Virus record (IMG/VR): IMGVR_UViG_3300020576_004720
Coordinates: 7,706-71,705 of that record
Direction: 5' to 3' (one strand)
From: a virus
DNA: 64,000 nt
Shown piece by piece: positions 2,867-48,248 of this stretch; the first letter of the stretch is position 1; each line of letters starts with the position of its first letter. The translations under genes were made by a program, and so were the position numbers. Under the pieces are notes generated by a model that worked only from the letters and a program-made list of their open reading frames with translations, ran no database searches and was not told where the DNA came from.

Positions 2867-2890
2867 ATGGTTTTTGTTTTTAAAAATAAG

Positions 2891-2969: not shown

Positions 2970-2981
2970 ACCTATTTTGAT

Positions 2982-5090: not shown

Positions 5091-5110
5091 TTTTTCTTTT
5101 TTTGTGTTTT

Positions 5111-5547: not shown

Positions 5548-5549
5548 GT

Positions 5550-6059
5550 TTAGGAGTTGATAGGTATGAGTAATGCTTTTTCAGTAAATACCTCTGCTAC
5601 TTTGTCAGATTGCTTATCAAACTCAAGCATAACCTTTACTACAGCTTCTAAGCCACGTATCTGGTCAGCACGAATTTCTCCAGCAGTGTAATTCTTATAC
5701 TCCTTATAATAAATTGAAGTATTTGTTTCAAAAGCATATTCGATCTTTTTCAACTCTTCTTCTGTAAATTCCGTAGCTTCAATATTCTCTATAATTTTTT
5801 CCCACATCTCAGGATCATCACGAATAAAACTTAAAAAAGGTGAAGGAGTTTGATAGTTTGCTGTAGTGGAAAACAAATGACCCCATATTTGATTTGTTTT
5901 ATTACAAATAAGGGTATTACCAAATTTACTAATTGTTCCACCCATACCTTTTGCTACAAGGTTACCTACGGCACAAGCTGTACAAGTACCTTTAACCAAT
6001 GTGCCATTGTTAACAGCGTCAAGGAATGTATCAATTGCTCTTTGAATACGACCAGTCAT
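5550..6059 (-). CDS. hypothetical protein (169 aa)
   Basis: ORF. Confidence 0.55.
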   Translation of the reverse strand: MTGRIQRAIDTFLDAVNNGTLVKGTCTACAVGNLVAKGMGGTISKFGNTLICNKTNQIWGHLFSTTANYQTPSPFLSFIRDDPEMWEKIIENIEATEFTEEELKKIEYAFETNTSIYYKEYKNYTAGEIRADQIRGLEAVVKVMLEFDKQSDKVAEVFTEKALLIPINS

Positions 6060-7046: not shown

Positions 7047-7071
7047 CATATAACCCCTAAAAATGGGGTAG

Positions 7072-7143
7072 TAGCCCCGATAGGACTCGAACCTATATTA
7101 AGAGTTTAGAAAACTCCCGTTCTATCCCTTGAACTACAAGGCC
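7072..7143 (-). tRNA. tRNA-Arg (anticodon TCT)
   Basis: Acceptor GGCCTTG/CGGGGCT with three G-U pairs, D-arm GTTC-AAGGGATA-GAAC, anticodon stem GGAGT/ACTCT with loop TTTCTAA, T-arm ATAGG-TTCGAGT-CCTAT. Confidence 0.6.
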
Positions 7144-36534: not shown

Positions 36535-37524
36535 ATGTCTTGTTTAGAAAATACACCTTGTAATCCTTGTTCTGAAAATAGCTATGATAATTGTGGTTGT
36601 TTAAACCCAACTACTTTTGAGTGCATAACACTTCCTGGTGTTCATTCAGCTCTTGGTATTACAAATGATATGAATGGGCTTCAAGTTTTAGAAGCTCTTG
36701 ATACTCTTATTGCAAATCTTGATATTCCTACTCCACCAAGTGGTTCAGATATATATGCAAAAGTTTCATCATCAGATGATACTGCAGATTATCTAAATAA
36801 CAAATTATTAGTAGGAAACTTCATGACTAAAACAGTCTTGAATCCTGGATTAAATGAAAAAATAAGATTTAATGTAGCTCCAGCTTCACTTATTTCAGCC
36901 GATAGTGGAAACTATCTTGAAATAGGTACAGATGGAAAATTAAGAGCAATTCCTCCAACCCCTACTATAAATATGTATGTACAAGGTGGTACAGGAGTCA
37001 CTGTAACAGGTACAGGTCCTGCAACAGATCCATTTATAGTATCAATTAATCCTTCTATTACAGCAACAAGAAAGTGCTTTGATGGAGTTTGGAGAGATGT
37101 TACATTAACAGCTACAGGAAATGCAAATGTAGTTTATGTATCTGGTACTCCTAAATATAGAGTAAGATTTGATGGAACTATAGAATTTAAAGGTTCTGCA
37201 ACATATACTGTAAATTTTGGAGCATATAGTGATCTTGCTGGAACTAGAAAAAGAACTGTTACTGTAGGAAATATTTCTACAATAACTGCTTTAGCAACTG
37301 GATGTGGTGTTTCTGCAGCGGAACTTCTTGGTACAGCAGACCTAAAATCTATTAACTATATAGACCAACCTGGAACTGGAGATCAAATAACTCAACAATA
37401 TGGTTATATTGTAAGAAAGAATGGAACAAATCTTATCTTAGAATTCCAATCAGCTTTTATAAATGCTACATCAAAACAAATTGTAGTAAATTTTGAAGGA
37501 GTAATAATTCATCCTAACATATAA
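36535..37524 (+). CDS. structural hypothetical protein (329 aa)
   Basis: ORF. Confidence 0.5.
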   Translation: MSCLENTPCNPCSENSYDNCGCLNPTTFECITLPGVHSALGITNDMNGLQVLEALDTLIANLDIPTPPSGSDIYAKVSSSDDTADYLNNKLLVGNFMTKTVLNPGLNEKIRFNVAPASLISADSGNYLEIGTDGKLRAIPPTPTINMYVQGGTGVTVTGTGPATDPFIVSINPSITATRKCFDGVWRDVTLTATGNANVVYVSGTPKYRVRFDGTIEFKGSATYTVNFGAYSDLAGTRKRTVTVGNISTITALATGCGVSAAELLGTADLKSINYIDQPGTGDQITQQYGYIVRKNGTNLILEFQSAFINATSKQIVVNFEGVIIHPNI

Positions 37525-37560
37525 TAAACTTGCAGTTTTCTTGGTTTCTGTAAAAAGTTT

Positions 37561-37590
37561 TGACCCTTGTTCTCAAGGGTCTTTTTTTAA
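37561..37590 (+). terminator. rho-independent terminator
   Basis: GACCCTTG-TTCT-CAAGGGTC followed by TTTTTTT. Confidence 0.7.
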
Positions 37591-37618
37591 AATAAATTTG
37601 GAAAATATAAAAACATTT
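37581..37618 (+). promoter_or_regulatory. promoter (AAATAAATTTGG - 20 nt - TATATTTG), family copy 1
   Basis: Matches the Bacteroidetes sigma-A consensus: -33 TTTG, -7 TAnnTTTG. Confidence 0.55.
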
Positions 37619-37637
37619 CGTATATTTGTATTCCAAA

Positions 37638-37682
37638 ACAGATTACTATGGCTTGTGGCTGTGGAAAACCTAAACCCAAACC
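37638..37682 (+). CDS. tiny ORF (14 aa, MACGCGKPKPKPKK); candidate leader peptide
   Basis: First ATG after promoter copy 1. Translated by hand. Confidence 0.25.
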
Positions 37683-37686
37683 TAAA

Positions 37687-37764
37687 AAATAAAAATATGT
37701 GGTTTATATTTGGAATCCTTTTAGGATTTTTTATAGGTAAAAATTTTGATAAGATCAAAGACTT
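37687..37764 (+). CDS. tiny hydrophobic ORF (25 aa, MWFIFGILLGFFIGKNFDKIKDLIL)
   Basis: Second short ORF between promoter copy 1 and the terminator at 37886. Confidence 0.3.
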
Positions 37765-37885
37765 AATTTTATGAAAAATAACTTTACACATACATGGCAA
37801 CCCACAACCCAGTGTCCATTTGGCATCTGCGAGGGTCTATGTATATGTATTAAAAAGTAAGCTTTTATTTTTTCCGATTCATACA

Positions 37886-37915
37886 CAAACCCTCAATAAC
37901 ATGAGGGTTTTTTAT
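37886..37915 (+). terminator. rho-independent terminator
   Basis: CCCTCA-ATAACA-TGAGGG followed by TTTTTTATTTT. Confidence 0.65.
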
Positions 37916-37961
37916 TTTATGGCGATGTAGGGAAGTCAGGTTTTTCCCACTAGCTTTGGGA

Positions 37962-38003
37962 TAAAAATAAATTTGGAAGTTCGAAAACTTTTTACTATAT
38001 TAG
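37962..38003 (+). promoter_or_regulatory. promoter family copy 2 (TTTG - 20 nt - TATATTAG) with an embedded hairpin AAGTT-CGAAA-ACTT
   Basis: Same AAATAAATTTGG leader as copy 1. It ends 4 nt before the ATG of HNH-1, so the mRNA is probably leaderless. Confidence 0.5.
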
Positions 38004-38007
38004 TAGT

Positions 38008-38571
38008 ATGAAAGTAAGTTTAATATGTCCTGTTTGTAAATCTAAATTTGAAAAGGAAGAGAAATATATAAATTTTAGTATCAAAAAAGATTGGAAAATT
38101 TATTGTTCAAATGAATGTAAGCATATAGGAAAAGCAAAAGAATATAATTATAAATGTGCAAATTGTGGTAAAGATTTGATAGTTACTCCTAGTAGAATTA
38201 AAAGGTCTAAAACAGGAAATTTATATTGTAGTAAAAAGTGTTCGACTATAAAAAACAATACTCTTTTTAAAAAATGGGAAAATCATCCTCAATATAAAAC
38301 TGGTATAGGTAGTTATAGATGGATAAAGATAAAATCAATGAAGGAATTAAAATGTGAGGAATGTAATTTTGATAACCCTTTAGCTTTAGAAGTTCATCAT
38401 AAAGATAGAAATAGAAAAAATAATAATCTTGATAACTTACAACTACTTTGTTGTAATTGTCATACAATAAAGCATAAAACAGGTAGTGGGCTAATTGGTA
38501 AGCCGCCACATTTGGGATGTGGACATCATGCAGAATCGTCCTCTGTCTACCTGACACAAAAGATTGAATAA
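38008..38571 (+). CDS. HNH homing endonuclease (HNH-1), with N-terminal Cys-rich zinc fingers
   Basis: LEVHHKDRNRKNNNLDNLQLLCCNCHTIKH (HNH motif) and CPVCKSKF...C...C. Confidence 0.8.
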   Translation: MKVSLICPVCKSKFEKEEKYINFSIKKDWKIYCSNECKHIGKAKEYNYKCANCGKDLIVTPSRIKRSKTGNLYCSKKCSTIKNNTLFKKWENHPQYKTGIGSYRWIKIKSMKELKCEECNFDNPLALEVHHKDRNRKNNNLDNLQLLCCNCHTIKHKTGSGLIGKPPHLGCGHHAESSSVYLTQKIE

Positions 38572-38625
38572 TTTAAGCGACTAAGTTATAAAATAGATGG
38601 TTCGAATCCATTCATTGCCACATAG

Positions 38626-38700
38626 GTCCATATGGCTGAGAGGTCAAAAGCAACAATCTGCAAAATTGTAAAACCGTTGGTTCAAATCCAACTATGGACT
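38626..38700 (+). tRNA. tRNA-Cys (GCA)
   Basis: Acceptor GTCCATA/TATGGAC, anticodon stem ACAAT/ATTGT with loop CTGCAAA, T-arm GTTGG-TTCAAAT-CCAAC. Confidence 0.75.
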
Positions 38701-38706
38701 CTAAAT

Positions 38707-38780
38707 GCCTCCTATGCAGATATGGTGCTGCGTCTGCCTTGTAAGCAGAAATAGAGAGTTTTCGAGTAACTCAGGAGGAT
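38707..38780 (+). tRNA. tRNA-Thr (TGT)
   Basis: D-arm GCAG/CTGC, anticodon stem TCTGC/GCAGA with loop CTTGTAA, T-arm GAGTT-TTCGAGT-AACTC. Positions 1 and 72 are a G-A mismatch. Confidence 0.65.
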
Positions 38781-38786
38781 CTAAAA

Positions 38787-38860
38787 GGTAACTAAGCAAT
38801 TGTTGGTCAATGCATCTGTTTGAAGAACAGACTAACTCAGTTCGAACCTGAGAGTTACCA
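38787..38860 (+). tRNA. tRNA-Phe (GAA)
   Basis: Acceptor GGTAACT/AGTTACC, anticodon stem TCTGT/ACAGA with loop TTGAAGA, T-arm CTCAG-TTCGAAC-CTGAG. Confidence 0.8.
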
Positions 38861-38865
38861 CAGAT

Positions 38866-38936
38866 ACCTCGTTGGTGTAATGGTAGCACAAGAGCTTCCA
38901 AACCTCTTGGAACCTTTTCGATTAGGGTACGAGGTG
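38866..38936 (+). tRNA. tRNA-Trp (CCA)
   Basis: Acceptor ACCTCGT/ACGAGGT, anticodon loop TTCCAAA (one C-C mismatch at the base of the anticodon stem), T-arm ACCTT-TTCGATT-AGGGT. Confidence 0.65.
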
Positions 38937-38959
38937 CAGGATACTGGATGAAGAAAAAT

Positions 38960-39032
38960 TCCAATATGGGGTAATTGGTAACCCGACTGACTTTGATTCA
39001 GTAGATTCTAGGTTCGAACCCTAGTATTGGAT
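38960..39032 (+). tRNA. tRNA-Gln (TTG)
   Basis: Acceptor TCCAATA/TATTGGA, anticodon stem ACTGA/TCAGT with loop CTTTGAT, T-arm CTAGG-TTCGAAC-CCTAG. Confidence 0.8.
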
Positions 39033-39034
39033 CT

Positions 39035-39107
39035 GGTGGTTATAGCTTAATGGTAGAGCGGTACATTGTGGCTGTATTATGTGAGGGTTCGAGTCCCTTT
39101 AATCACC
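39035..39107 (+). tRNA. tRNA-His (GTG), with G-1
   Basis: Acceptor GTGGTTA/TAATCAC preceded by an extra G that pairs with C73. Anticodon loop TTGTGGC. T-arm GAGGG-TTCGAGT-CCCTT. Confidence 0.75.
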
Positions 39108-39114
39108 CTGTAAA

Positions 39115-39187
39115 CCACTTTTAGTTAAACTGGAAATAACCTTTGACTACGGATCAAAAATTATCTGTTCGAATCAGATAAAGTGGT
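39115..39187 (+). tRNA. tRNA-Arg (ACG)
   Basis: Acceptor CCACTTT/AAAGTGG, anticodon stem TTTGA/TCAAA with loop CTACGGA, T-arm ATCTG-TTCGAAT-CAGAT. Confidence 0.75.
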
Positions 39188-39390
39188 CAAAAATATATAT
39201 CTTTGTAGTATGAGAAATATCACACTTTATACTGGAGTTGGTGGTTATATAATGTTTCAAGAGTCATTAGAACAAATAACTCTTGGGACTAGAAGAGTAT
39301 ATATAGGCAAAAAGGTCCCTAGAATACTAAGAAAAGTTCATAAGAAAATAGAAAAAGCAGAAAACGGAAAATATTTTTTTAGAACAAAAA

Positions 39391-39428
39391 AATAAATTTG
39401 GATTTTTAAAAAATACATTGTATATTTG
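39391..39428 (+). promoter_or_regulatory. promoter family copy 3 (AAATAAATTTGG - 20 nt - TATATTTG)
   Basis: Exact consensus. Confidence 0.55.
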
Positions 39429-39457
39429 CACTAATTAAAAGTTATAGACATTCACAA

Positions 39458-39544
39458 ATGCAATCTTTAAATATCATAGCGATGGTGAAAGGTAATATTG
39501 AGGATAGAAACTCAATAGGGTTTGTGTTGTCTTTCTGTAAGTGA
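39458..39544 (+). CDS. candidate leader peptide (28 aa, MQSLNIIAMVKGNIEDRNSIGFVLSFCK) upstream of the Lys-Val-Arg-Asn-Met...Gly-Glu-Asp-Ile tRNA array
   Basis: Short ORF between promoter copy 3 and the terminator at 39567-39600. Codons AAA/AAG, GTG, AGA, AAT/AAC, ATG, GGG/GGT, GAG, GAT and ATC/ATT/ATA correspond to the downstream tRNAs. Confidence 0.35.
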   Translation: MQSLNIIAMVKGNIEDRNSIGFVLSFCK

Positions 39545-39566
39545 GAGTTAAGAAAATAAAATACAC

Positions 39567-39600
39567 AAGCCCTTCCCAAAAAGAAGGGCTTTTTTATTTC
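39567..39600 (+). terminator. rho-independent terminator / attenuator immediately 5' of tRNA-Lys
   Basis: AAGCCCTTC-CCAAAAA-GAAGGGCTT followed by TTTTTATTTC. tRNA-Lys starts at the next base. Confidence 0.65.
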
Positions 39601-39674
39601 TCCTCTTAACTCAGTTGGCTAGAGTAGTAAACTTTTAATTTACGAGTCGTGGGTTCGAGTCCCTCAGGGGAGAC
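39601..39674 (+). tRNA. tRNA-Lys (TTT)
   Basis: Acceptor CTCCTCT/AGGGGAG with a G-U pair, D-arm ACTC/GAGT, anticodon stem GTAAA/TTTAC with loop CTTTTAA, T-arm GTGGG-TTCGAGT-CCCTC with one U-U mismatch. Confidence 0.7.
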
Positions 39675-39679
39675 ATATA

Positions 39680-39752
39680 GAGGATTAACTCAGTTGGCAG
39701 AGTGCTTGTATTACAAACAAGAAGTCAGGATCTCGGAATTCCTATCCTCTAC
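39680..39752 (+). tRNA. tRNA-Val (TAC), non-canonical T-loop
   Basis: Acceptor AGAGGAT/ATCCTCT, anticodon stem CTTGT/ACAAG with loop ATTACAA. T-arm AGGAT-CTCGGAA-TTCCT lacks the usual TTC. Confidence 0.6.
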
Positions 39753-39757
39753 ACAAG

Positions 39758-39830
39758 TCCTTGTAACTCAACGGATAGAGTATTTGCCTTCTAAGCAAAA
39801 AGTTGTAAGTTCGATTCTTACCAAGGATAC
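39758..39830 (+). tRNA. tRNA-Arg (TCT)
   Basis: Acceptor GTCCTTG/CAAGGAT, anticodon stem TTTGC/GCAAA with loop CTTCTAA, T-arm GTAAG-TTCGATT-CTTAC. Confidence 0.75.
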
Positions 39831-39871
39831 AGGTGGGTTACCTTTCCCCGTGGAGTTAAAAAAGGAGATGT

Positions 39872-39945
39872 GGGAAGTTAGCTCATGTTGGTAGAGCAAA
39901 TGACTGTTAATCATTAGGTGAAGGGATCGTCACCCTTACTTCCCT
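39872..39945 (+). tRNA. tRNA-Asn (GTT), unusual T-loop ATCGTCA
   Basis: Acceptor GGGAAGT/ACTTCCC, D-arm GCTC/GAGC, anticodon stem AATGA/TCATT with loop CTGTTAA, T-stem AAGGG/CCCTT. Confidence 0.7.
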
Positions 39946-39950
39946 CATAA

Positions 39951-40022
39951 TGTGAGGTAATGCAGCGGTAGCAGAAAAGGCTCATACCCTTTTAGTCGGG
40001 AGTTCGAATCTCCCCCTCGCAA
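39951..40022 (+). tRNA. tRNA-Met (CAT)
   Basis: Acceptor TGTGAGG/CCTCGCA, anticodon stem AAAGG/CCTTT with loop CTCATAC, T-arm GGGAG-TTCGAAT-CTCCC. Confidence 0.75.
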
Positions 40023-40046
40023 CAGAAAAATTACTATCTTTGCAAT

Positions 40047-40511
40047 ATGGAAAAATATTTTCGGACACAAGATGGTAAAATAGTAAATATCATCGAACAT
40101 ACGCTAGATCAGATTGAAAAATTCAATCATCTAGAAATATCTATCGGAACAGATAGTCAAGACTGGGGACAAGATACCGTTTATGTAACTTGTATAGCTT
40201 ATAGATATGGAAGAAGAGGTGCTCATTTTATTTACTTAAAAGAAGTTGTATCAAGAATAAAAGATTTTAGTCAATTTACAAGATTATATGGAGAAGGATT
40301 AAGAACTCTTGAAATACATGATACTTTGACTCAAGATATCCCTATTGCTGTTAAAGCTTTGGAATTTGATTTTGCAGATGCAAAGAAAACTATAAGTTCT
40401 AAATTAGTTTCTGCGTTTAAAGGTTATGCAAACTCAACTTTTAAAACTGGAGAAATGATAGCATGTAAGGCTGCAGATCACGTCATAAGACACCCTTCTG
40501 TATATAAATAA
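40047..40511 (+). CDS. hypothetical protein (154 aa) embedded in the tRNA island; weak RNase H-like/DUF458-like GTDSQ motif
   Basis: ORF. ISIGTDSQDWGQDTVYVTCIAY is the only suggestive motif. Confidence 0.45.
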   Translation: MEKYFRTQDGKIVNIIEHTLDQIEKFNHLEISIGTDSQDWGQDTVYVTCIAYRYGRRGAHFIYLKEVVSRIKDFSQFTRLYGEGLRTLEIHDTLTQDIPIAVKALEFDFADAKKTISSKLVSAFKGYANSTFKTGEMIACKAADHVIRHPSVYK

Positions 40512-40634
40512 GTGTTACTGATGTACACAGTGTCGTAGTCCCTCTTAAGCCTCTGATTCAAGCTCAAATGAAGAGTGTAATCGTAAAGTACACATAGTTA
40601 ATAGGTTCTATCGGGCGTACAAAAACCTAAACCT

Positions 40635-40708
40635 GCAGTAGTAGTTCAATTGGTAGAATGCCGTCCTTCCAAGTCGGAGGTTTGCAAGTTCGAGTCTTGT
40701 CTACTGCA
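40635..40708 (+). tRNA. tRNA-Gly (TCC)
   Basis: Acceptor GCAGTAG/CTACTGC, D-arm GTTC-AATTGGTA-GAAT, anticodon loop CTTCCAA, T-arm GCAAG-TTCGAGT-CTTGT. Confidence 0.7.
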
Positions 40709-40711
40709 CAT

Positions 40712-40785
40712 GCCATGTTTGACTAGCGGTCTAGGTCAACACTCTTTCACGGTGTTATTCATGGGTTCGAATCCCATACATGGTA
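40712..40785 (+). tRNA. tRNA-Glu (TTC)
   Basis: Acceptor GCCATGT/ACATGGT with G1-U72, anticodon stem ACACT/GGTGT with loop CTTTCAC, T-arm ATGGG-TTCGAAT-CCCAT. Confidence 0.75.
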
Positions 40786-40789
40786 CTAA

Positions 40790-40864
40790 CGCCTATTAGG
40801 GGAGTTGGTCGTCCCTGTTCCTCTGTCTAAGGAAAGATCCTCGGTTCGAATCCGTGATAGGCGA
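40790..40864 (+). tRNA. tRNA-Asp (GTC)
   Basis: Acceptor CGCCTAT/ATAGGCG, D-stem GGGG/CCCT, anticodon stem TTCCT/AGGAA with loop CTGTCTA, T-arm CTCGG-TTCGAAT-CCGTG. Confidence 0.7.
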
Positions 40865-40867
40865 CAT

Positions 40868-40944
40868 GCTGATGTATCCTCTCTGGCTTATATCCAGTTG
40901 AAAAGGTAGTTGGTTACACATTAGTTCGAATCTAATCATCAGTA
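40868..40944 (+). tRNA. irregular tRNA-like gene (77 nt), possible tRNA-Ile(TAT)-like; D-arm missing or displaced
   Basis: Acceptor GCTGATG/CATCAGT and T-arm ATTAG-TTCGAAT-CTAAT are clear. The only anticodon-like hairpin is CTGG-CTTATAT-CCAG, which gives TAT. A D-loop-like GTAGTTGGTTAC sits where the variable region should be. Confidence 0.4.
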
Positions 40945-40947
40945 CAA

Positions 40948-40984
40948 AATAAATTTGATAAATTCGAACTTTTATCTTATATTG
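40948..40984 (+). promoter_or_regulatory. promoter family copy 4 (TTTG - 20 nt - TATATTG) with an embedded TTCGAAC hairpin; drives HNH-2
   Basis: AAATAAATTTGATAAATTCGAACTTTTATCTTATATTG is homologous to the HNH-1 promoter region. Confidence 0.5.
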
Positions 40985-41004
40985 TATATATAAAGTATAC
41001 AATA

Positions 41005-41550
41005 ATGGTTAAAAAGACAAAAATTTTGGAACTTTTTCATAAAGGATTTAGTTCTGCTGAAATATCTAAACAGTTAAGATGCTCTAAATCAACAGTAAGT
41101 TATCATTGTTCAAAATTTATTAACAAAGTTGATAAATATACACCTGAATTATTAAAAATATATCAGGATGCTTATGATCAAGGATTATCTTTTAAAGGTG
41201 TTGCTGATAAATTTAAAGTATCAAGACAATTATTAGGTAAAAAATTAAAAGCAAGAAAACTTACAAAACTTCAAATTAAACAAAAAGCTGACAAAAGAAA
41301 AAAAGGCTATAGGTTAAAAGTAAAAGAACAATGTGTAGAATATAAAGGAGGGAAATGTTGTAAATGTGGATATAATAAATGTCTTGCTGCTTTAGAATTT
41401 CATCATATTGATCCTAATAAAAAAGATTATACTATAAGTGGTGGAACTAAAAGTTTTCAAAACTTAAAGTCTGAATTAGATAAATGTATTTTAGTGTGTA
41501 AAAATTGTCATGCAGAGATACATTTTCAAATAATTAATAATGACTTGTAG
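41005..41550 (+). CDS. HNH homing endonuclease (HNH-2) with an N-terminal helix-turn-helix
   Basis: LEFHHIDPNKKDY...CKNCHAEIH (HNH motif) and AEISKQLRCSKSTVSYH (HTH-like). Confidence 0.8.
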   Translation: MVKKTKILELFHKGFSSAEISKQLRCSKSTVSYHCSKFINKVDKYTPELLKIYQDAYDQGLSFKGVADKFKVSRQLLGKKLKARKLTKLQIKQKADKRKKGYRLKVKEQCVEYKGGKCCKCGYNKCLAALEFHHIDPNKKDYTISGGTKSFQNLKSELDKCILVCKNCHAEIHFQIINNDL

Positions 41551-41613
41551 CTCAAATGGTAGAGCGTTACACTGATAATGTAAAGGTAGTGAGATCGTTA
41601 CTCACCAAGTCAA
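41541..41613 (+). tRNA. tRNA-Ile (GAT), overlapping the last 10 nt of HNH-2
   Basis: Acceptor TGACTTG/CAAGTCA, D-arm GCTC-AAATGGTA-GAGC, anticodon stem TTACA/TGTAA with loop CTGATAA, T-arm GTGAG-ATCGTTA-CTCAC. Confidence 0.75.
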
Positions 41614-41770
41614 CTAAGGGGGTGCATGTTCCAAGGCTGGCGAAGTAGTTTTGCAAACTATTTGAGAAGATTTCGATTATCTTCATCTCCACAAAATAAA
41701 TTTTGGAAGAAAAAAGAAAAGTTGTATTTTTGCCTTGGTTTTTATAGGCATCATTGTCACGGAATAGAAA

Positions 41771-41805
41771 GTCCTTCTAGAAATAGAAGGATTTTTTATT
41801 TTGAC
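41771..41805 (+). terminator. rho-independent terminator
   Basis: AGTCCTTCTA-GAAA-TAGAAGGATT followed by TTTTTATTTT. Confidence 0.65.
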
Positions 41806-42178
41806 TAATATCCCTTATTTTTGCCAAAAGGTTTTTTCCAACTTTTATCCTTTAGCACAATAAAAGTTATCTATTAAAACTAGTATGAAAGTAACTAATT
41901 CATACGATAGGATGTATAAATATCAAGCAATGTCTATCCGTGACAACTTGTACCTGCAAGAAAAAACCAAGTAGGCTAAAATACATTCCTCCGTGAAAAT
42001 ATAAAGTCCTCATAATCAACAGCCTACATGGTGAAAAGATGAGGCACAGGGACACGGGAGTTTTAGGTTAGATGAGTCTATCTAAATGCTTGAAGATAGA
42101 AACCCTACTTGCAGGGATAAACGGAGGTGTGTTTGGTAATATCAGAAATATTTAGTATATTATAATAAAAGTATAAAA

Positions 42179-43978
42179 ATGGCAATATATTACGTAGATT
42201 CCAGTTACACTGGTTCAACATCTAATGGTGGTATAAATACACCTTGGAAGTCTCTATCAAATGTAAATTCAAATATGAGTTTACTTCAACCTGGAGACCA
42301 AGTCTTATTAAAAAGAGGACAGAGTTATTCAGGAACTCTAAATATAACAAGATCTGGTAATTCATCAGCAAGAATTATTTTTGGTGCATATGGAACAGGG
42401 GCACAACCTAAATTATTAGGTACAGGTGCATCTATTAATGTTCTTATATCTATGTATAATAGATCATATATTACACTGCAAGACTGGACTATAGTAGATG
42501 AGTCTATATCTGCAGTAGATAGAACAATACAGGCAAAAATTCAAAGAGCTATTGTTCCAGATTCATCTACTAATATTACTATTACAAGATGTAATTTTGA
42601 TAGAACTGGTTGTGCGTTGTATACTACTGGTGATAATACAACTTTTACATATTCTACAGTACAGAATATGAGGATGATTAAAAACACCAAAGATGGTCCG
42701 CCTCCCGGAAATGATGATGACTATGGTGCTAATGGTGTAATTATATCTTCTTCTAATAATATTATTACAAATAATATATTTGAAGGGTGTTGGGCAGATT
42801 CATATGATTATGAATATGATGGTGGAGCAGTAGATATTTACGCTGATGTAGATTGTAGTAATAACCTTATAGCATACAATAGTTTTAATGATTGCAATGG
42901 TGTTATTGAAATTGGTGGTTCAGGTGGACGTACTGTAACCGGAACTGTATTAGCATACAATAAATGTACAAATAATGGGTCTTTTATGTATGTGAGTAAT
43001 TCAGGCACTTTTGCTACAAATGTAATTAATACAAGTATACTTAATAATGTTATTGTCGAAACTCAACCATTTAGAGTATCAAGTAATGCAATGATAGGAT
43101 ATAAGAGCACTCCTACTACAGCAGCTACTTTAACTGTAAAGAATAATATATTTCAATTATATGGTACTGTAGATGTCTATAGAGCACAGTGGAATAATAC
43201 TACTCTTATTCATGAAAATAATGTATACAAATTAAATACATCAGGAACAGGTTCATTATTAAATATTACAGCAAACCCTAGTGAGATTGTAACAAGTGCT
43301 AACTTTTGGACCTCAACTTCAGGAAATGCAAAAGATTGGAACTTCTCTCCTTTAGTTGGCAGTGTATTAATAAATGCAGGAACAAATGTGGGGTACTCTG
43401 TAGATTTTGCAGGTGTTGCTGTTAGTAATCCTCCTGAAATAGGTATTTTAGAATATGTTGCTGGTACAACAACTACTACAAGTTCTACTTCAAGTACAAG
43501 TAGTACAAGTACAACTTCTACTTCAAGTACAAGTACAACTACAACTACAACTTTAGTTCCTACTACAACAACTACTACTTCAAGTACATCAACAACATCA
43601 ACAAGTAGTACAACTACCACTAGTTCAACAACTACAACTACAAGTTCTAGTACAACTACGACTACAACTATAAATGAACCTATTCAAGGAACTATTTCTT
43701 TATCAGGAACATTACCAAGAAGAAGAGTTTCAAATATTTGTTGGAATATAAATACAAATGTACCTGTAGTAAAATATATTGAAAGAATGACAAATAATGT
43801 ATTTACAACTATTTACACTATTCCTGGTGGTTATAGTACTACAGCATCTAACTGTAGGGATATCAAATTAAGTTTAACCATTAATACTTTTAGAATTAAA
43901 GTAGTAGATAGTTATGGAAATATAAAATACTCTCAGACTATAAGTTATAATAATCAGGGATTTTTAATAGATGTTTAA
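42179..43978 (+). CDS. tailspike / polysaccharide-depolymerase-like protein (right-handed parallel beta-helix + Ser/Thr-rich linker + C-terminal domain)
   Basis: Repeated NxxIxxNxF-type pectate-lyase-fold repeats (ITITRCNFDRTGCALYTTGDN..., IISSSNNIITNNIFEGCW...). About 70-aa linker made only of Thr/Ser. Confidence 0.55.
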   Translation: MAIYYVDSSYTGSTSNGGINTPWKSLSNVNSNMSLLQPGDQVLLKRGQSYSGTLNITRSGNSSARIIFGAYGTGAQPKLLGTGASINVLISMYNRSYITLQDWTIVDESISAVDRTIQAKIQRAIVPDSSTNITITRCNFDRTGCALYTTGDNTTFTYSTVQNMRMIKNTKDGPPPGNDDDYGANGVIISSSNNIITNNIFEGCWADSYDYEYDGGAVDIYADVDCSNNLIAYNSFNDCNGVIEIGGSGGRTVTGTVLAYNKCTNNGSFMYVSNSGTFATNVINTSILNNVIVETQPFRVSSNAMIGYKSTPTTAATLTVKNNIFQLYGTVDVYRAQWNNTTLIHENNVYKLNTSGTGSLLNITANPSEIVTSANFWTSTSGNAKDWNFSPLVGSVLINAGTNVGYSVDFAGVAVSNPPEIGILEYVAGTTTTTSSTSSTSSTSTTSTSSTSTTTTTTLVPTTTTTTSSTSTTSTSSTTTTSSTTTTTSSSTTTTTTINEPIQGTISLSGTLPRRRVSNICWNINTNVPVVKYIERMTNNVFTTIYTIPGGYSTTASNCRDIKLSLTINTFRIKVVDSYGNIKYSQTISYNNQGFLIDV

Positions 43979-44016
43979 AATAAATTTGGTTTTTGTAAAT
44001 TATTATACTATATTTG
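43979..44016 (+). promoter_or_regulatory. promoter family copy 5 (AAATAAATTTGG - 20 nt - TATATTTG)
   Basis: Exact consensus. The ATG of the leader ORF lies 5 nt downstream. Confidence 0.55.
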
Positions 44017-44020
44017 CATC

Positions 44021-44092
44021 ATGAAAAATAACAAACTATATAGTTCCTTATCGTATCTCTTACAAAGTAAGAGCAGGGATTATATTGTTTAA
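44021..44092 (+). CDS. candidate leader peptide (23 aa, MKNNKLYSSLSYLLQSKSRDYIV) of the Leu-Leu-Ser-Ser-Tyr tRNA operon
   Basis: 12 of 23 codons are Leu/Ser/Tyr (CTA, TTA x2, CTC, TAT x3, AGT x2, AGC, TCC, TCG). This matches the five downstream tRNAs. A terminator follows 25 nt after the stop. Confidence 0.4.
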   Translation: MKNNKLYSSLSYLLQSKSRDYIV

Positions 44093-44117
44093 AAATAATT
44101 ATATTGTTTACAATAAA

Positions 44118-44149
44118 ACCCTGCCAATTTTGGTGGGGTTTTTCTTTTT
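44118..44149 (+). terminator. rho-independent terminator / attenuator abutting tRNA-Leu
   Basis: ACCCTGCCAA-TT-TTGGTGGGGT (10-bp stem with two G-U pairs) followed by TTTTTCTTTTT. tRNA-Leu starts at the next base. Confidence 0.65.
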
Positions 44150-44235
44150 GGGGATGTGGTGGAATTGATAGACACCCTAGACTTAGGATCTAGTGTTAAT
44201 AAACTGGCGTGAGAGTTTGAATCTCTCCATCCCTA
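44150..44235 (+). tRNA. tRNA-Leu (TAG), type II with long variable arm
   Basis: 86 nt. Acceptor GGGGATG/CATCCCT, anticodon stem CTAGA/TCTAG with loop CTTAGGA, T-arm GAGAG-TTTGAAT-CTCTC. Confidence 0.7.
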
Positions 44236-44240
44236 CAAAT

Positions 44241-44314
44241 GGTCTAGTAAGCTAACTGGGAAAGCTATAAAACTTAAAATTTTATGTTTGTGAGTTCGAA
44301 TCTCACCTAGACTA
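44241..44314 (+). tRNA. tRNA with anticodon TAA (Leu UUA) but short type I architecture (74 nt)
   Basis: Acceptor GGTCTAG/CTAGACT, anticodon stem TAAAA/TTTTA with loop CTTAAAA, T-arm GTGAG-TTCGAAT-CTCAC. Variable region is only 5 nt. Confidence 0.6.
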
Positions 44315-44318
44315 CAAT

Positions 44319-44405
44319 GGTAAGGTGCTCAAGTGGTCATAAGAGCCTCGCTTTGAAAGCCTGTGTGATGTAAAAGTCCCGTGGGTTCGAATCCCACCCT
44401 TGCCT
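44319..44405 (+). tRNA. tRNA-Ser (TGA), type II
   Basis: 87 nt. Acceptor GGTAAGG/CCTTGCC, anticodon loop TTTGAAA (imperfect stem), 17-nt variable arm, T-arm GTGGG-TTCGAAT-CCCAC. Confidence 0.6.
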
Positions 44406-44410
44406 CAAAT

Positions 44411-44494
44411 GGAGAGTTGCAGGAATTGGTAAACTGTTCTGTTTGCTAAACAGAAGATGTAAAAGTCGCAAGAGTTCGAATCTTGTACTCTCCT
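44411..44494 (+). tRNA. tRNA-Ser (GCT), type II
   Basis: 84 nt. Acceptor GGAGAGT/ACTCTCC, anticodon stem TCTGT/ACAGA with loop TTGCTAA. Its 15-nt variable arm resembles that of the neighbouring Ser tRNA. Confidence 0.65.
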
Positions 44495-44504
44495 CATAAT
44501 CAAT

Positions 44505-44576
44505 GGGATAGAAAGCAGGGCACTTAGCAACGTCTGTAAAACGTAGGCTCGTGAGTTTCGAGTACTCCCTATCCCA
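44505..44576 (+). tRNA. tRNA-Tyr (GTA)-like, short (72 nt) with a weak D-arm
   Basis: Acceptor GGGATAG/CTATCCC, anticodon stem ACGT/ACGT with loop CTGTAAA, T-arm TGAGT-TTCGAGT-ACTCC. No long variable arm. Confidence 0.5.
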
Positions 44577-44675
44577 CTTTTTCTTTTTATCATCTAATGA
44601 TTAAATATTGTTTACTTCAATAATTAATGTAAAAAATTATTTTTTTATATGAATACTTTTTCATAATTTTGTATT

Positions 44676-45308
44676 ATGATAGATTCAGATTTAAAAAGAT
44701 GTGGAGTTTATAAAATTACAAACTTAAAAAATAATAAGGTATATATCGGTAGTACTACAAAAACATTATATAGTAGAAAAAGGTCCCATTTTTTAAAATT
44801 AAAAAATAATATTCATTTCAATACACATCTTCAGTTGTCATTTAATAAATATGGCGAGAATTTCTTTACATTTGAAATATTGGCAATATGTAAAGAAGAA
44901 CATACAGTAATATTAGAAAATTTCTTTATTAAATTATACTCTTCGCATTTAAAAGATAAAGGTTATAATATGGCTATTCCATTAGAATTACCAGTTCCAA
45001 ATATTTCAAATAAAGGTAAAAAATTTTCTGAAGATCATAAAGAGAAAATATCATATTCATTAAAAAGAAATTGCTATTGGAAAAATAAAAAACAGCCTCA
45101 ATCTATGATCTCTAAAAGATCTGAAAAAAATAAAAAACTTATTCAACAAATATGTAAAAGTACTGGTAAAATTTTAAATACCTGGAGTTTTGAAGAAGCC
45201 AAGAAGAATGGTTATTATCCTTCTGCTGCTAGAAATTATATACAGGGCAAGAGAAAGTCTTATAAAGGATTTGATTGGAAAATAATAAAAAAATTATATG
45301 ATAAGTAA
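44676..45308 (+). CDS. GIY-YIG homing endonuclease
   Basis: GVYKITNLKNNKVYIGSTT (GIY-...-YIG) near the N-terminus. Confidence 0.75.
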   Translation: MIDSDLKRCGVYKITNLKNNKVYIGSTTKTLYSRKRSHFLKLKNNIHFNTHLQLSFNKYGENFFTFEILAICKEEHTVILENFFIKLYSSHLKDKGYNMAIPLELPVPNISNKGKKFSEDHKEKISYSLKRNCYWKNKKQPQSMISKRSEKNKKLIQQICKSTGKILNTWSFEEAKKNGYYPSAARNYIQGKRKSYKGFDWKIIKKLYDK

Positions 45309-46716: not shown

Positions 46717-47406
46717 ATGAGTACAAAAAGAAAACATATTGATACCTTTAGACAAATGTTAAAGGAACGAAATATAGATACTAATTACACCAATCAGTAT
46801 TTATATAATGTACTTTTCGACCAAGCAAAATGGTTGATAAAAAGAGAAATAAATAATGGAAATGTTCATAAAAATCCAAAGTTTTTACAAACTTTATCTT
46901 GTTGGGATATAGTTCCATCTTCAACTATTGAAGAGTGTTGTCCAGTAACAGTTAATTGTAAAATATATAGGACTAAGCATCAATTGCCTGAAATGTGGCA
47001 AACTGCAAATGGTCCAGCAATATTCTCAGTTACCTCTGTAGACAACACAACAAACTTTTTTATAACAAACTATAGAACATGGCAGTCCAAAAGACAAGAT
47101 CCTTATCATAAATTACAACCTACAAAGTATGTTTTTTATGAAAATGGTTATTTATGGTTTCCAGAATTTAATCCTCACAAGGTAAATATAAGAGTATTTG
47201 CAGTAGATGACGTTAGATTAATGGATATTAAATGTGAGGATTGTGATACTAATGAGAATGAGTGTATACAATTTCTTGAAACTGAGTTTTTAATACCAGA
47301 TTGGGTTGAAGCAGAAATGTATGCAAAAGCACTTCAGTTACTTGTTCCATTAAAACAGATACCTGAAGACCAACAAATTGATAAAAATGCAAACCGTAAG
47401 CTATAA
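46717..47406 (+). CDS. hypothetical protein (229 aa)
   Basis: ORF. Confidence 0.5.
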   Translation: MSTKRKHIDTFRQMLKERNIDTNYTNQYLYNVLFDQAKWLIKREINNGNVHKNPKFLQTLSCWDIVPSSTIEECCPVTVNCKIYRTKHQLPEMWQTANGPAIFSVTSVDNTTNFFITNYRTWQSKRQDPYHKLQPTKYVFYENGYLWFPEFNPHKVNIRVFAVDDVRLMDIKCEDCDTNENECIQFLETEFLIPDWVEAEMYAKALQLLVPLKQIPEDQQIDKNANRKL

Positions 47407-48248
47407 TGGTAAATAATAAAACAATAGATCATAAACCTATTCAGGAGCTTATAGCCATTGTTAAAAATGACTTTAAGAAATTTGATCTTGAAGGATTAAT
47501 TGATGATGGAAACCTCATCAAATCAGTAATGTATTGTAATGATAAACTTGGTTTAAATATTAGAGAGATAAGAGAAATAGCAATTCCTGTAAATGAGTAT
47601 AAAGCTAAATTACCTCTTGATTTTGAGAAGATGTTTTATGTATGTGCGTTAGAAGCTACAAATACACAAAATGTAACACTTACAAATCCTTTTGATAATA
47701 ATGTAGACCAAGATATTATATATGAAGCATCTTTAGATAGAGAATCTCTTGGATGTGTAGATAACTATAGGGTCCAAATTAAAAGAGAATCTAAACATGT
47801 TGTATATCAATATGGTAATTGGGTTCAACTTGAGGTTGATCCAAGTACTAGTTACTGTCATATAGACTGTCCAAATAAAACAAAGAAAGGTAGGTATAAA
47901 GTAGAGATTGATGGTGAATATATACATACTCCTTTTAGGTCTGGTACTTTATATCTTGTATATATAGGTATGATGAAGGATGAGAATGGTAATATTACAT
48001 TTCCTTTTCATCCATTAATTACACCATATTACGAATGGACTTTGAAAGAAAGTATAGTTAGTACTGCTTTATTTAATAGTGACTCTCCTAATCTTGGTGA
48101 GTTATGGAAATTAGCAAATAGACAAAGACAACTTGCTTGGTTGGATGCATATAATTTTACGACTGAAAAGTCTTATAATGAAACACTCCAAAGAGAAAAG
48201 AAAAAACAATTAGGTTGGTATCATCAATGGTTTAGATATTTTCAATAA
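47406..48248 (+). CDS. hypothetical protein (280 aa)
   Basis: ORF. ATGA-coupled to the upstream gene. Confidence 0.5.
   Translation: MVNNKTIDHKPIQELIAIVKNDFKKFDLEGLIDDGNLIKSVMYCNDKLGLNIREIREIAIPVNEYKAKLPLDFEKMFYVCALEATNTQNVTLTNPFDNNVDQDIIYEASLDRESLGCVDNYRVQIKRESKHVVYQYGNWVQLEVDPSTSYCHIDCPNKTKKGRYKVEIDGEYIHTPFRSGTLYLVYIGMMKDENGNITFPFHPLITPYYEWTLKESIVSTALFNSDSPNLGELWKLANRQRQLAWLDAYNFTTEKSYNETLQREKKKQLGWYHQWFRYFQ

Follow-up and report, generated by a model that had tools for sequence, protein, structure and literature searches.

Leader-peptide attenuators control the amino-acid operons ilvGMEDA, thr, ilvBN, trp and his of Escherichia coli, and a Phe-rich leader attenuates the pheST genes for phenylalanyl-tRNA synthetase. 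Leader-peptide motifs have also been predicted in the Bacteroidota, the Rfam 'Bacteroid-trp' leader being one example, which suggests that ribosome-mediated attenuation operates in these hosts and hence that the host machinery would be compatible with a phage-borne element of this type. To our knowledge, the regulation of the tRNA genes that phages carry has hardly been described, and we found no earlier description in the literature of leader-peptide control of this type for tRNA genes.

Here, we analysed a 64,000-nucleotide window of the IMG/VR virus record IMGVR_UViG_3300020576_004720, in which three tRNA islands, A, B and C, each follow a promoter, a short leader ORF and an intrinsic terminator. 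We judge it likely that the unit at island B controls the phage tRNA block by ribosome-mediated attenuation of transcription through a leader peptide. As in the multivalent E. coli leaders, a promoter-proximal short ORF holds clustered codons for more than one amino acid, and a terminator overlaps an antiterminator, the choice of fold being predicted to follow ribosome position. Unlike in those amino-acid operons, the regulated genes would be tRNA genes and the element is phage-borne; moreover, the leaders of this phage sample 3 to 10 amino acids and those of related phages all 20, with most of them occurring just once or twice and with no long tandem repeats. The pheST leader offers another parallel, as attenuation there sets the supply of a decoding component by the reading of cognate codons; however, the pheST product is a synthetase for one amino acid, whereas the product here is tRNAs, so that the sensor would gauge how abundant its own product is. 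T-box riboswitches likewise register tRNA status by codon–anticodon recognition in a leader and operate a terminator/antiterminator switch, but they are ribosome-free, rely on a single specifier codon together with the conserved T-box sequence, and control synthetase or amino-acid genes. The 'Bacteroid-trp' leaders differ in being cellular and in serving a single amino acid, Trp, ahead of biosynthetic genes. Between the tRNA genes of this phage lie homing endonucleases and small ORFs, as in the tRNA regions of phages T4 and T5, where promoters and terminators are interspersed as well. The annotated small ORFs of T5 display no terminator-coupled roll-call pattern; the sole hint in T5 is T5.072 (WEGWEGEIEWLYFY), which lies upstream of Tyr-Glu-Trp-Phe.

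Architecture of the island B unit

The promoter, the 28-codon ORF, the terminator and the array opening with tRNA-Lys are all present where the first-pass annotation had placed them (Table 1). In a consensus scan, the promoter fits the Bacteroidota consensus TTTG-N18-20-TAnnTTTG, with the -33 and -7 elements ~19 nt apart; transcription probably starts near 39435, and the leader start codon is the first ATG downstream of that point. This consensus has 9 matches in the window against 2.4 expected from shuffles, and four of the five matches on the + strand fall within the tRNA region (37597, 39397, 41702 and 43985), three of them preceding the three leaders. The island B promoter belongs to a repeat family common to the other leader promoters, and the same extended motif is frequent in IMG/VR phage contigs. 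The leader ORF matched no NCBIfam family and no PHROG. Downstream, the GC-rich stem of the terminator comprises 9 bp, and its T tract ends at the 5′ end of tRNA-Lys.

Table 1 Coordinates of the three leader units and their tRNA islands within the window.
Feature	Position	Strand	Details
Unit A promoter	37597–37628	+	
Unit A small ORFs	37648–37692, 37697–37774	+	
Unit A leader	37771–37860	+	MKNNFTHTWQPTTQCPFGICEGLCICIKK
Unit A terminator	37887–37918	+	adjoins 5′ tRNA-Pro remnant
Unit A 5′ remnant of tRNA-Pro	37920–37963	+	
Island A tRNAs Pro, Cys, Thr, Phe, Trp, Gln, His, Arg(ACG)	38480–39188		behind inserted HNH cassette
Island B promoter, Bacteroidota sigma-A (host-type)	39397–39428	+	-33 TTTG 39397–39400; -7 TATATTTG 39421–39428
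Leader B ORF, 28 codons + stop	39458–39544	+	MQSLNIIAMVKGNIEDRNSIGFVLSFCK
Roll-call run, leader B codons 5–18	39470–39511	+	NIIAMVKGNIEDRN
Antiterminator 5′ strand (region 2)	39517–39527	+	AGGGUUUGUGU, within leader B codons 20–24
Antiterminator 3′ strand (region 3)	39563–39573	+	ACACAAGCCCU, shares 7 nt with terminator 5′ arm
Island B intrinsic terminator	39567–39599	+	stem AAGCCCUUC/GAAGGGCUU (39567–39575/39583–39591), loop CCAAAAA, T tract to 39599
tRNA-Lys(TTT)	39600–39674	+	ARAGORN, Rfam
tRNA-Val(TAC)	39679–39751	+	Rfam only, 46 bits
tRNA-Arg(TCT)	39757–39830	+	ARAGORN, Rfam
tRNA-Asn(GTT)	39872–39946	+	ARAGORN, Rfam
tRNA-Met(CAT)	39951–40023	+	ARAGORN, Rfam
Inserted ORF, RNaseH-like (PF04308)	40047–40511	+	154 aa
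tRNA-Gly(TCC)	40635–40709	+	
tRNA-Glu(TTC)	40712–40786	+	
tRNA-Asp(GTC)	40790–40865	+	
Non-canonical Ile(TAT)-like tRNA gene	40868–40944	+	Rfam 30.6 bits vs gathering score 29
Inserted HTH-HNH homing-endonuclease-like ORF	41005–41550	+	own promoter copy 40946–40983
tRNA-Ile(GAT)	41541–41614	+	
tRNA-Ala(TGC)-like gene, sub-threshold	41622–41692	+	ARAGORN at 90% threshold
Unit C promoter	43985–44016	+	
Unit C leader	44021–44092	+	MKNNKLYSSLSYLLQSKSRDYIV
Unit C terminator	44115–44149	+	
Island C tRNAs Leu(TAG), Leu(TAA), Ser(TGA), Ser(GCT)	44150–44495	+	
Island C Tyr(GTA)-like gene, sub-threshold	44501–44581	+	

The order of the array had also been described correctly, with the HTH-HNH ORF and the Ala-like gene left out. 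The 3′ end of this ORF overlaps tRNA-Ile, and the Ala-like gene, which neither Rfam nor ARAGORN at its default setting calls, possesses a G3:U70 pair, a canonical T arm and a poor D arm. The RNaseH-like ORF is preceded by its own -7-like box (TATCTTTG, 40033–40040), and a 58%-identical homolog in the metagenomic phage L153 is likewise situated between tRNA genes. Promoter-like sites before both inserted ORFs could let the distal tRNAs bypass the attenuator.

The anatomy matches that of leader-peptide attenuators: the promoter is followed by a short ORF ahead of the first tRNA (39600), cognate codons are clustered in a 14-codon run, an intrinsic terminator separates the ORF from the tRNAs, and a mutually exclusive antiterminator has a predicted dependence on ribosome position. 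The typical targets of such attenuators, biosynthesis enzymes and aminoacyl-tRNA synthetases, are not downstream, where we found 11 tRNA or tRNA-like genes and the two inserted mobile ORFs. By sequence, the unit belongs to neither of two Rfam leader families: Phe_leader (RF01859, 28.2 bits) and Thr_leader (RF00506, 20.4 bits) scored below the gathering threshold of 55, and these matches are essentially to the terminator.

Leader codons call the roll of the downstream tRNAs

Leader B contains an unbroken run of 14 in-set codons, AAT ATC ATA GCG ATG GTG AAA GGT AAT ATT GAG GAT AGA AAC, that covers 10/10 amino-acid types and leaves none of the 11 tRNA and tRNA-like genes downstream, both Ile isoacceptors included, without a cognate codon. 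GCG, the lone 'foreign' codon of the run, is accounted for by the Ala-like gene. Against proteome composition, the run and its coverage have P ~1e-4; among 73,000 stop-free windows generated with a genome-based order-2 Markov model none equalled it, and with the Ala-like gene disregarded P is ~1.4e-5 in the same windows. Of the window's 417 small ATG ORFs, leader B alone attains this combination of run and coverage. The signal is thus the clustering of cognate codons, not their overall count.

This distinction bears on the first-pass annotation, which had based its case on total enrichment and on rare ATA codons, and had judged the match weaker than at what it called island 2. Its count of 18 served codons among 28 is right, but that total is not significant (binomial P = 0.15 at the amino-acid level and 0.08–0.25 at the codon level), and the enrichment test that it proposed would reject the finding. 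At 31 per 1000 codons, ATA comes close to ATT (36) and cannot be called rare in this phage, and the match is not a weaker one, since its 14 codons form a perfect run in which each of the 11 tRNA genes is represented. Its central proposal, a repeated promoter/leader/terminator module with codons matching the downstream tRNAs, is supported, more strongly than it had supposed, by clustering, by the placement of a predicted antiterminator, by own-set specificity and by recurrence in other phages. In a leader-by-set matrix of the three modules of the window, with leaders A, B and C, runs against the own set extend over 13, 14 and 9 codons, as opposed to at most 5 against any other set. The codon matches of islands B and C are completed only by the sub-threshold Ala-like and Tyr-like genes. 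The terminator and the array of island A are now set apart by an HNH cassette that carries its own promoter.

The design recurs in the cultured, distantly related Cellulophaga phage phi4:1, whose tRNA genes are partitioned differently among three units with leaders that match accordingly (P 1e-5 to 1e-4 each). There, QRLHLQELEQP precedes Pro, Glu, Gln, His, Leu, Leu and Arg(ACG); TKTGITVIDKTKGARA precedes Ala, Lys, Ile, Gly, Met, Asp, Thr, Val, Arg(TCT) and Met; and YNNSNWSFSY precedes Tyr, Ser, Asn, Trp and Phe. Even the Arg codon tracks the isoacceptor, with CGT accompanying ACG and AGA accompanying TCT.

Could an ordinary small gene or spurious ORF, followed by a terminator, simply have come to lie before a tRNA block, its codon match an AT-rich coincidence? 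The in-set total of 18/28 does not exceed background, intergenic ORFs of AT-rich composition can resemble a match when the set is large, and a generic scanner for leader matches returned composition-driven false positives with large AT-rich sets. Nulls that preserve nucleotide composition, however, give P <=1e-4 for the run and coverage of leader B and ~1e-4 or lower for each of the five other units in the two phages; every leader matches its own island only; and the 6–10 nt between terminator and first tRNA are too few to hold a promoter. We regard coincidence as scarcely credible.

A predicted antiterminator is positioned for ribosome control

Folding of the leader, a check suggested by the first-pass annotation, revealed an antiterminator where attenuation needs it. 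The predicted helix at island B is 11 bp long, its 5′ strand begins 5 nt past the codon run, and the duplex energy of -17.2 kcal/mol is lower than expected from 1000 dinucleotide shuffles (P = 0.007); it appears in the minimum free energy fold once the 3′ arm of the terminator is removed. Across the six units of the window and phi4:1, the 5′ strand always occupies the codons directly after the run, and the helix is significant against shuffles in five of the six (P = 0.003, 0.007, <0.001, 0.016, 0.08 and 0.001 over all six). We then modelled the geometry by ending the transcript at the terminator loop and placing the ribosome codon by codon. With the ribosome on any codon as far as the last one of the run, antiterminator probability was 0.4–0.99; it collapsed within the next 1–3 codons, in 6/6 units.

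These alternative folds, together with a run that is complementary to the downstream tRNA anticodons by construction, would also suit a T-box-like device that is independent of translation, in which the codons act as specifier triplets that pair with anticodons and stabilize one leader fold. We consider such a device very improbable: no T-box riboswitch reached the gathering score anywhere in the window, and none matched within 37500–44700 at E <= 10. Every run belongs to a reading frame that opens with a start codon and closes at a stop just past region 2, and in 6/6 units the place where the run ends agrees with a ribosome footprint lying upstream of region 2. Among the related phages described below, the set of all 20 amino acids is conserved while their positions change, which fits decoding rather than a fixed RNA–tRNA docking.

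With the full terminator present, equilibrium folding prefers the terminator at every ribosome position and does not discriminate between the states; the proposed switch would thus have to be kinetic, as in classical attenuators.

Related phages carry leaders with all twenty amino acids

Databases contain only near-identical copies of this phage, so that covariation evidence for the design comes from other phages and not from leader B itself. Many metagenomic phages possess a single leader bearing all 20 amino acids upstream of an array of ~15–25 tRNA genes. All 20 are present within 39–53 residues in 13/19 leaders from IMG/VR phages and in 36/37 homolog clusters. The amino-acid set is kept while positions vary, and the leader sequences diverge freely except for that set and the region-2 nucleotides. 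The antiterminator helix of this family shows compensatory changes, being 94% paired with 7 double-change cells, a level reached by 0/500 shuffles. crAss001 has tRNA arrays and lacks the roll-call design.

Leader translation might instead act outside termination, through a finished peptide that signals in trans the presence of every required tRNA, or through ribosome traffic that affects how RNases process the tRNA precursor or how stable it is, the hairpin being only a 5′ stabilizer or the terminator of an upstream gene. A leader with all 20 amino acids would also suit a peptide that reports overall decoding capacity, and the dominance of the terminator in equilibrium folding is compatible with such a role. 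Yet the antiterminator is conserved and covarying, its position relative to the run is identical in 6/6 units, and the free divergence of the leaders speaks against a structured peptide product; we hold this explanation to be improbable.

The same parts could also serve another signal, as a timing device or a global sensor of translation and coupling that turns the tRNA genes on when ribosomes are scarce or slow, regardless of individual tRNAs. In the ribosome-free leader, the antiterminator is predicted with P = 0.67 in unit B and 0.86 in unit C, such that an untranslated leader would already read through, and single codons per tRNA imply weak specificity. The codon set of such a sensor need not follow the tRNA content of an island, whereas the leaders track the partition in two phages and also the missing amino acids in three metagenomic ones. 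In L196, leader and array both lack Glu and nothing else; in L188, the leader lacks Arg only and the downstream array, as sampled, has no tRNA-Arg; and in L165, the leader lacks Ala and Asp and the array lacks Ala, Asp and Ser. A global sensor is, in our estimate, likewise unlikely.

A model for attenuation of phage tRNA genes

Taken together, a model for ribosome-mediated attenuation of the tRNA block emerges. By computation, we observe the anatomy of the unit, its statistical non-randomness and its geometry, and we find the design conserved and covarying in other phages; translation of the leader, read-through caused by stalling, and the physiological trigger are the steps that we infer. Host RNA polymerase would initiate at the 39397–39428 promoter and transcribe the 28-codon leader, in which codons 5–18 would sample Lys, Val, Arg (AGA), Asn, Met, Gly, Glu, Asp, Ile (ATA), Ile (ATY) and Ala. 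During smooth reading, the ribosome would be over region 2 (39517–39527), or between regions 2 and 3, while the terminator is synthesized; with the ribosome past the run, the terminator hairpin (39567–39591) would form and transcription would halt right before tRNA-Lys. Were a charged tRNA scarce, the ribosome would stall in the run, leaving region 2 free to pair with 39563–39573, and this pairing would sequester the 5′ arm of the terminator and let the polymerase enter the tRNA array. A leader left untranslated may likewise permit read-through. The outcome would be a demand-driven negative feedback on phage tRNA supply, with one sensor for each of the three islands. Candidate triggers are codon-usage mismatch, loss of host tRNAs during infection, and host anticodon nucleases. 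With a single codon per tRNA, such a sensor would be weaker than the tandem runs of classical leaders.

Implications for phage tRNA biology

The purpose of phage tRNAs is debated, with compensation for codon usage, replacement of degraded host tRNA, and escape from anticodon nucleases under discussion. If the model is true, the phage gauges decoding capacity and expresses tRNAs on demand, and the reason for carrying them becomes testable through which perturbation opens the attenuator. Cellulophaga baltica and phi4:1 constitute a culturable system suited to direct tests. Leader content also predicts tRNA genes that standard tools miss, namely the Ala(TGC)-like and Tyr(GTA)-like genes, and is consistent with the Ile(TAT)-like gene. 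Leader-peptide attenuation would then reach tRNA genes, and the amino acids that it reads would go from one to three up to all twenty. We lean towards the broader view that a widespread, unrecognised class of roll-call attenuators exists in phages that infect Bacteroidota, and perhaps in those of further hosts, with leaders written for the subset of one island or for all 20 amino acids before a full array; these attenuators would provide demand-sensing feedback on phage tRNA supply, and could also act as an inducible response to the loss of host tRNAs or to a tRNA-cleaving defence.

Organization of island B

This AT-rich phage genome (GC 32%) carries 20 confidently called tRNA genes on the plus strand at 37.5-44.6 kb, arranged in three islands. 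The closest protein relatives of the phage come from phages of Flavobacteriia. A neighbouring pair of its ORFs falls in the Pfam families CrAss_Ring_2 and CrAss_Ring_1, which makes it a relative of crAss-like phages. Three isolated tRNA genes, for Met, Arg(CCT) and again Arg(TCT), stand on the minus strand at a distance from the islands, with neither a leader nor an abutting terminator.

The promoter, the 28-codon leader ORF, the terminator and the array from tRNA-Lys onward, all listed in the first-pass annotation of island B, were found in the window. A sigma-70 promoter scan of the window was uninformative (50 found versus 49.7 expected), and promoter calling was based on the Bacteroidota consensus in its place. 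Two genes had been overlooked: an HNH endonuclease ORF, and a tRNA-Ala(TGC)-like gene with a G3:U70 identity pair, called by ARAGORN at a relaxed threshold only. That threshold furnished only five extra calls in 64 kb, three of which are the TAT-anticodon and Ala-like genes of island B and the Tyr-like gene of island C. The Ala-like tRNA and the Tyr-like tRNA, at 44501-44581, are sub-threshold, the tRNA-Val of island B was called by Rfam only, and the TAT-anticodon tRNA at 40868-40944 is non-canonical (Rfam, 30.6 bits). Beyond island B, a fourth strict promoter match is followed ~35 nt on by a terminator that resembles the one in unit B, with no ORF between them and no tRNA downstream (window 41693-41801); this element could be a decayed attenuator or a ~65-nt small RNA.

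Features of the tRNA region and of the comparison leaders (window positions unless a locus is named)
Feature	Location	Strand	Details
Isolated tRNA genes Met, Arg(CCT), second Arg(TCT)	1190-1264, 2890-2969, 7071-7143	minus	
First small ORF before leader A	37648-37692	+	MACGCGKPKPKPKK
Second small ORF before leader A	37697-37774	+	MWFIFGILLGFFIGKNFDKIKDLIL; hydrophobic
Apparent 5' half of tRNA-Pro(TGG)	37920-37963		acceptor GGCGATG, D arm, anticodon loop TTTGGGA
HNH ORF, island A	38008-38571		
Intact tRNA-Pro	38480-38555		
Apparent 3' part of split tRNA-Pro	~38590-38622		T arm, complementary acceptor strand CATTGCC
Promoter B	TTTG 39397, TATATTTG 39421	+	Bacteroidota consensus scan
Leader ORF B	39458-39544	+	28 codons
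Antiterminator B	39517-39527 with 39563-39573		
Intrinsic terminator B	T tract 39592-39599	+	
tRNA genes, island B	Lys from 39600	+	Lys, Val, Arg(TCT), Asn, Met, RNaseH-like ORF, Gly, Glu, Asp, TAT-anticodon tRNA, Ile(GAT)
HNH ORF, island B	41005-41550	+	
tRNA-Ala(TGC)-like gene	41622-41692	+	
Fourth promoter match; terminator	41702-41732; 41769-41801		
GIY-YIG endonuclease ORF	44676-45308		in or beside tRNA islands
CrAss_Ring_2 and CrAss_Ring_1 ORFs	46717-48248		
phi4:1 leader	NC_021788		MKIQRLHLQELEQPIISGGTGV; before Pro Glu Gln His Leu Leu Arg(ACG)
phi4:1 leader	NC_021788		...TKTGITVIDKTKGARAY...; before Ala Lys Ile Gly Met Asp Thr Val Arg(TCT) Met
phi4:1 leader	NC_021788		MKTNYCTYNNSNWSFSY...; before Tyr Ser Asn Trp Phe and Cys-like pseudo-tRNA
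All-20 leader family	L158, L162, L169, L170, L174-L176, L184, L186, L190, L197 (IMG/VR)		proteins P0001-P0037
Candidate subset-type leader	L037 4907-5052		MIQVNNIFDFNIEAAEADFGTQRLR; before Asp Asp ? Ala Phe Phe Glu; terminator and antiterminator GGUUAAGG
Candidate subset-type leader	L182 8198-8385		MKTTMTYKLGVDKTGMVADS...; before Ser Asp Val Thr Lys Met Ala Gly
Candidate subset-type leader	L157 850-1000		MVLNFFFMCLFLRHLTFHAS; before Phe Gln His Leu Arg Leu Arg Cys

A clustered codon run in leader B

The first-pass annotation had counted 18 of the 28 leader codons as decoded by the downstream tRNAs and had proposed enrichment over the phage proteome as the measure of that match. The count is right; the enrichment is not significant (binomial P 0.15 at the amino-acid level, 0.08-0.25 at the codon level), and on that measure, which lies within background, the finding would fail. 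The ATA codons described as rare belong to a common codon in this phage. The overall enrichment test was replaced by run-length and coverage statistics under three nulls, and the codon-match signal of leader B is one of clustering and coverage, not of total count.

Codons 5-18 (N I I A M V K G N I E D R N) form an unbroken run made up exclusively of island B amino acids. All ten island amino acids are represented, every one of the eleven tRNA genes finds a cognate codon there, and the matching extends to isoacceptors: ATA for the TAT tRNA, ATC/ATT for GAT and AGA for TCT. Run and coverage together have P ~1e-4 in random peptides of phage proteome composition, and among ~73,000 stop-free windows generated by an order-2 Markov model of the genome, none matched the run. 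With the Ala-like gene left aside, a 10-codon run with all nine types is retained (P ~1.4e-5, Markov null). No equal or better match to island B was found among the other 416 small ATG ORFs of the window or in ~14,700 windows of real proteins. A generic leader scanner with proteome-based P values, which an antisense control showed to be unreliable for large AT-rich sets through composition artefacts, gave 8 matches at P < 1e-3 for leaders paired with their own arrays versus 0-1 with random arrays; this excess favours a real coupling between leader and array. A chance codon match, with which the total count is compatible, is the less likely explanation.

Leader content tracks the island in two phages

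The two sister units repeat the pattern. Leader A, MKNNFTHTWQPTTQCPFGICEGLCICIKK, precedes Pro-Cys-Thr-Phe-Trp-Gln-His-Arg(ACG) and has 13 consecutive in-set codons; leader C, MKNNKLYSSLSYLLQSKSRDYIV, precedes Leu-Leu-Ser-Ser and the Tyr-like gene and has nine, including codons for both Leu and both Ser isoacceptors. Each window leader is specific to its own island (own-set runs of 13, 14 and 9; cross-set runs of at most 5). The terminators of islands B and C stop 6-8 nt 5' of the first tRNA, and that of island A adjoins an apparent 5' half of tRNA-Pro. Two small ORFs come before leader A on a single short transcript, and the second of them ends in a stop codon that overlaps the leader A start codon (ATGA).

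Relatives were sought by several routes. In deposited phage genomes, megablast with the region hit nothing but short segments of single tRNA genes; searching with the neighbouring exonuclease returned Flavobacterium siphophage-like contigs that carry no tRNAs; IMG/VR searches with the ring-protein and RNaseH-like ORFs gave nothing useful; and a scan of a single metagenome gave one 1.3-kb contig with no leader. An exact-protein look-up returned only near-identical copies of the phage (99-100% identical), in which leader B is unchanged. A generic promoter-pattern search gave many unrelated Bacteroidota phages, few with tRNAs. Cellulophaga phage phi4:1 is a distant cultured relative, its virion protein 24% identical, with the same architecture. 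Its three leaders have P of 1e-5 to 1e-4 under both nulls, and the leader-by-island cross matrix is again diagonal. The terminator T tracts of the three units lie at 87187-87195, 88163-88169 and 89917-89925 in NC_021788. The partition of tRNAs differs between the two phages, and leader content tracks the partition: the islands that hold Glu, Leu, Thr, Asn, Trp, Phe, Cys, Tyr and Ser are not the same in the two genomes, with the leader switched to match, and the leader Arg codon is CGT with Arg(ACG) islands and AGA with Arg(TCT) islands. RefSeq has no annotation for two of the phi4:1 leaders and lists the third (gp075) as a hypothetical protein. A purely global sensor of translation, indifferent to island content, is less likely.

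Alternative folds of the leader transcript

When the terminator 3' arm was omitted, the 5' arm paired with a G-rich segment inside the leader ORF, directly after the run; in unit B, this antiterminator comprises 11 bp (-17.2 kcal/mol). Against 1000 dinucleotide shuffles, the antiterminators of the three window and three phi4:1 units gave P of 0.003, 0.007, <0.001, 0.016, 0.08 and 0.001, respectively, with the leader partner always at approximately codons 15-26. Equilibrium folding with the complete terminator favoured the terminator at every ribosome position and did not discriminate the states, so selection between the folds has to be kinetic, as it is in the classical trp and his attenuators.

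We modelled the decision point with a transcript truncated at the terminator loop, in which folding was confined to RNA 3' of the ribosome edge. In 6/6 units, the antiterminator is predicted for an A site at any codon through the run end and collapses one to three codons past it; for unit B, its probability is 0.69 up to codon 15, 0.65 at 16, 0.43 at 17, 0.25 at 18 and 0.04 at 19. By this model, the run would end exactly where a sensing codon stops being useful. If left untranslated, the leaders of units B and C are likewise predicted to read through, so that read-through may be the default state and fast translation the condition that turns it off. A ribosome-free, T-box-like sensor is less likely; no Rfam T-box or leader family matched.

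Mobile ORFs and possible exchange of tRNA genes

Two HNH ORFs and a GIY-YIG ORF lie in or beside the islands, each with its own promoter copy. Promoter-like sites of inserted ORFs may let distal tRNAs bypass the attenuator. Each HNH ORF extends into the 5' end of the tRNA gene that follows, which in island A is the intact tRNA-Pro. There, promoter copy, ORF and intact tRNA-Pro lie between the two apparent halves of another tRNA-Pro (window 37918-38625), which when joined are called as a tRNA by ARAGORN. The sequence suggests that a homing-endonuclease cassette inserted into the initial tRNA gene of island A, splitting it and supplying a replacement. In a 99.3%-identical contig from another sample (L141, 1345-1416; window 40632-40703), tRNA-Gly(TCC) is a different allele, with 16 differences in ~70 nt and identical flanks, leader B included, which suggests cassette-like replacement of a single tRNA gene.

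Leaders with all 20 amino acids

Among large-array IMG/VR contigs, a single 39-53-codon ORF and, 6-12 nt ahead of the first tRNA, a strong terminator are common, and 13/19 such leaders contain all 20 amino acids (P 0.002-0.03 each). One family (39-54 codons, typical start MKTLTLHT...) directly precedes arrays of ~15-25 tRNAs where sampled; almost all of its members use the full set of 20 amino acids, and its proteins are unnamed or annotated hypothetical. In one leader family, 36/37 homolog clusters hold all 20 within 50-54 residues, the single Cys shifting among positions 17, 10, 29 and 20. Absent amino acids covary between leader and array: leader and array of L196 both lack Glu only; the L188 leader lacks Arg only, and its array as sampled lacks tRNA-Arg; in L165, Ala and Asp are missing from the leader and Ala, Asp and Ser from the array.

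In an alignment of 11 leaders from this group, the antiterminator helix is 94% paired, with both-side changes at two positions (seven cells), a level reached by 0/500 shuffles. At one position, region 2 (the antiterminator 5' strand) changes from A to G together with U to C in region 3 (the 3' strand), and the terminator partner stays G. A peptide or RNA-processing role in place of termination is less likely.

The roll-call design, one codon per downstream tRNA, is not universal; it is absent from phage T5, and Bacteroides phage crAss001 has 23 annotated tRNA genes in 1683-5807 and no roll-call leaders. T5.072 (L214, NC_005859, 15618-15893, minus strand) has WEGWEGEIEWLYFY and lies directly upstream of a Tyr-Glu-Trp-Phe tRNA cluster, with no abutting terminator and an annotated promoter between it and the cluster; the match may be coincidence.

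A model for tRNA supply

The best-supported reading of unit B, computational throughout, is ribosome-mediated attenuation of tRNA genes. Smooth translation of the leader would allow the terminator to form; a ribosome stalled at any codon served by the island tRNAs would free region 2, so that the antiterminator could form and the tRNA genes be transcribed. The leader peptides match no named family, and full-text literature searches with limited coverage of subscription papers turned up no account of tRNA genes, phage or cellular, being controlled through a leader peptide. The mechanism itself is of a known kind; what appears new is its use on tRNA gene arrays, a roll call of as many as 20 amino acids, and its occurrence in a virus. 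The outcome would be feedback on the phage's own tRNA supply.
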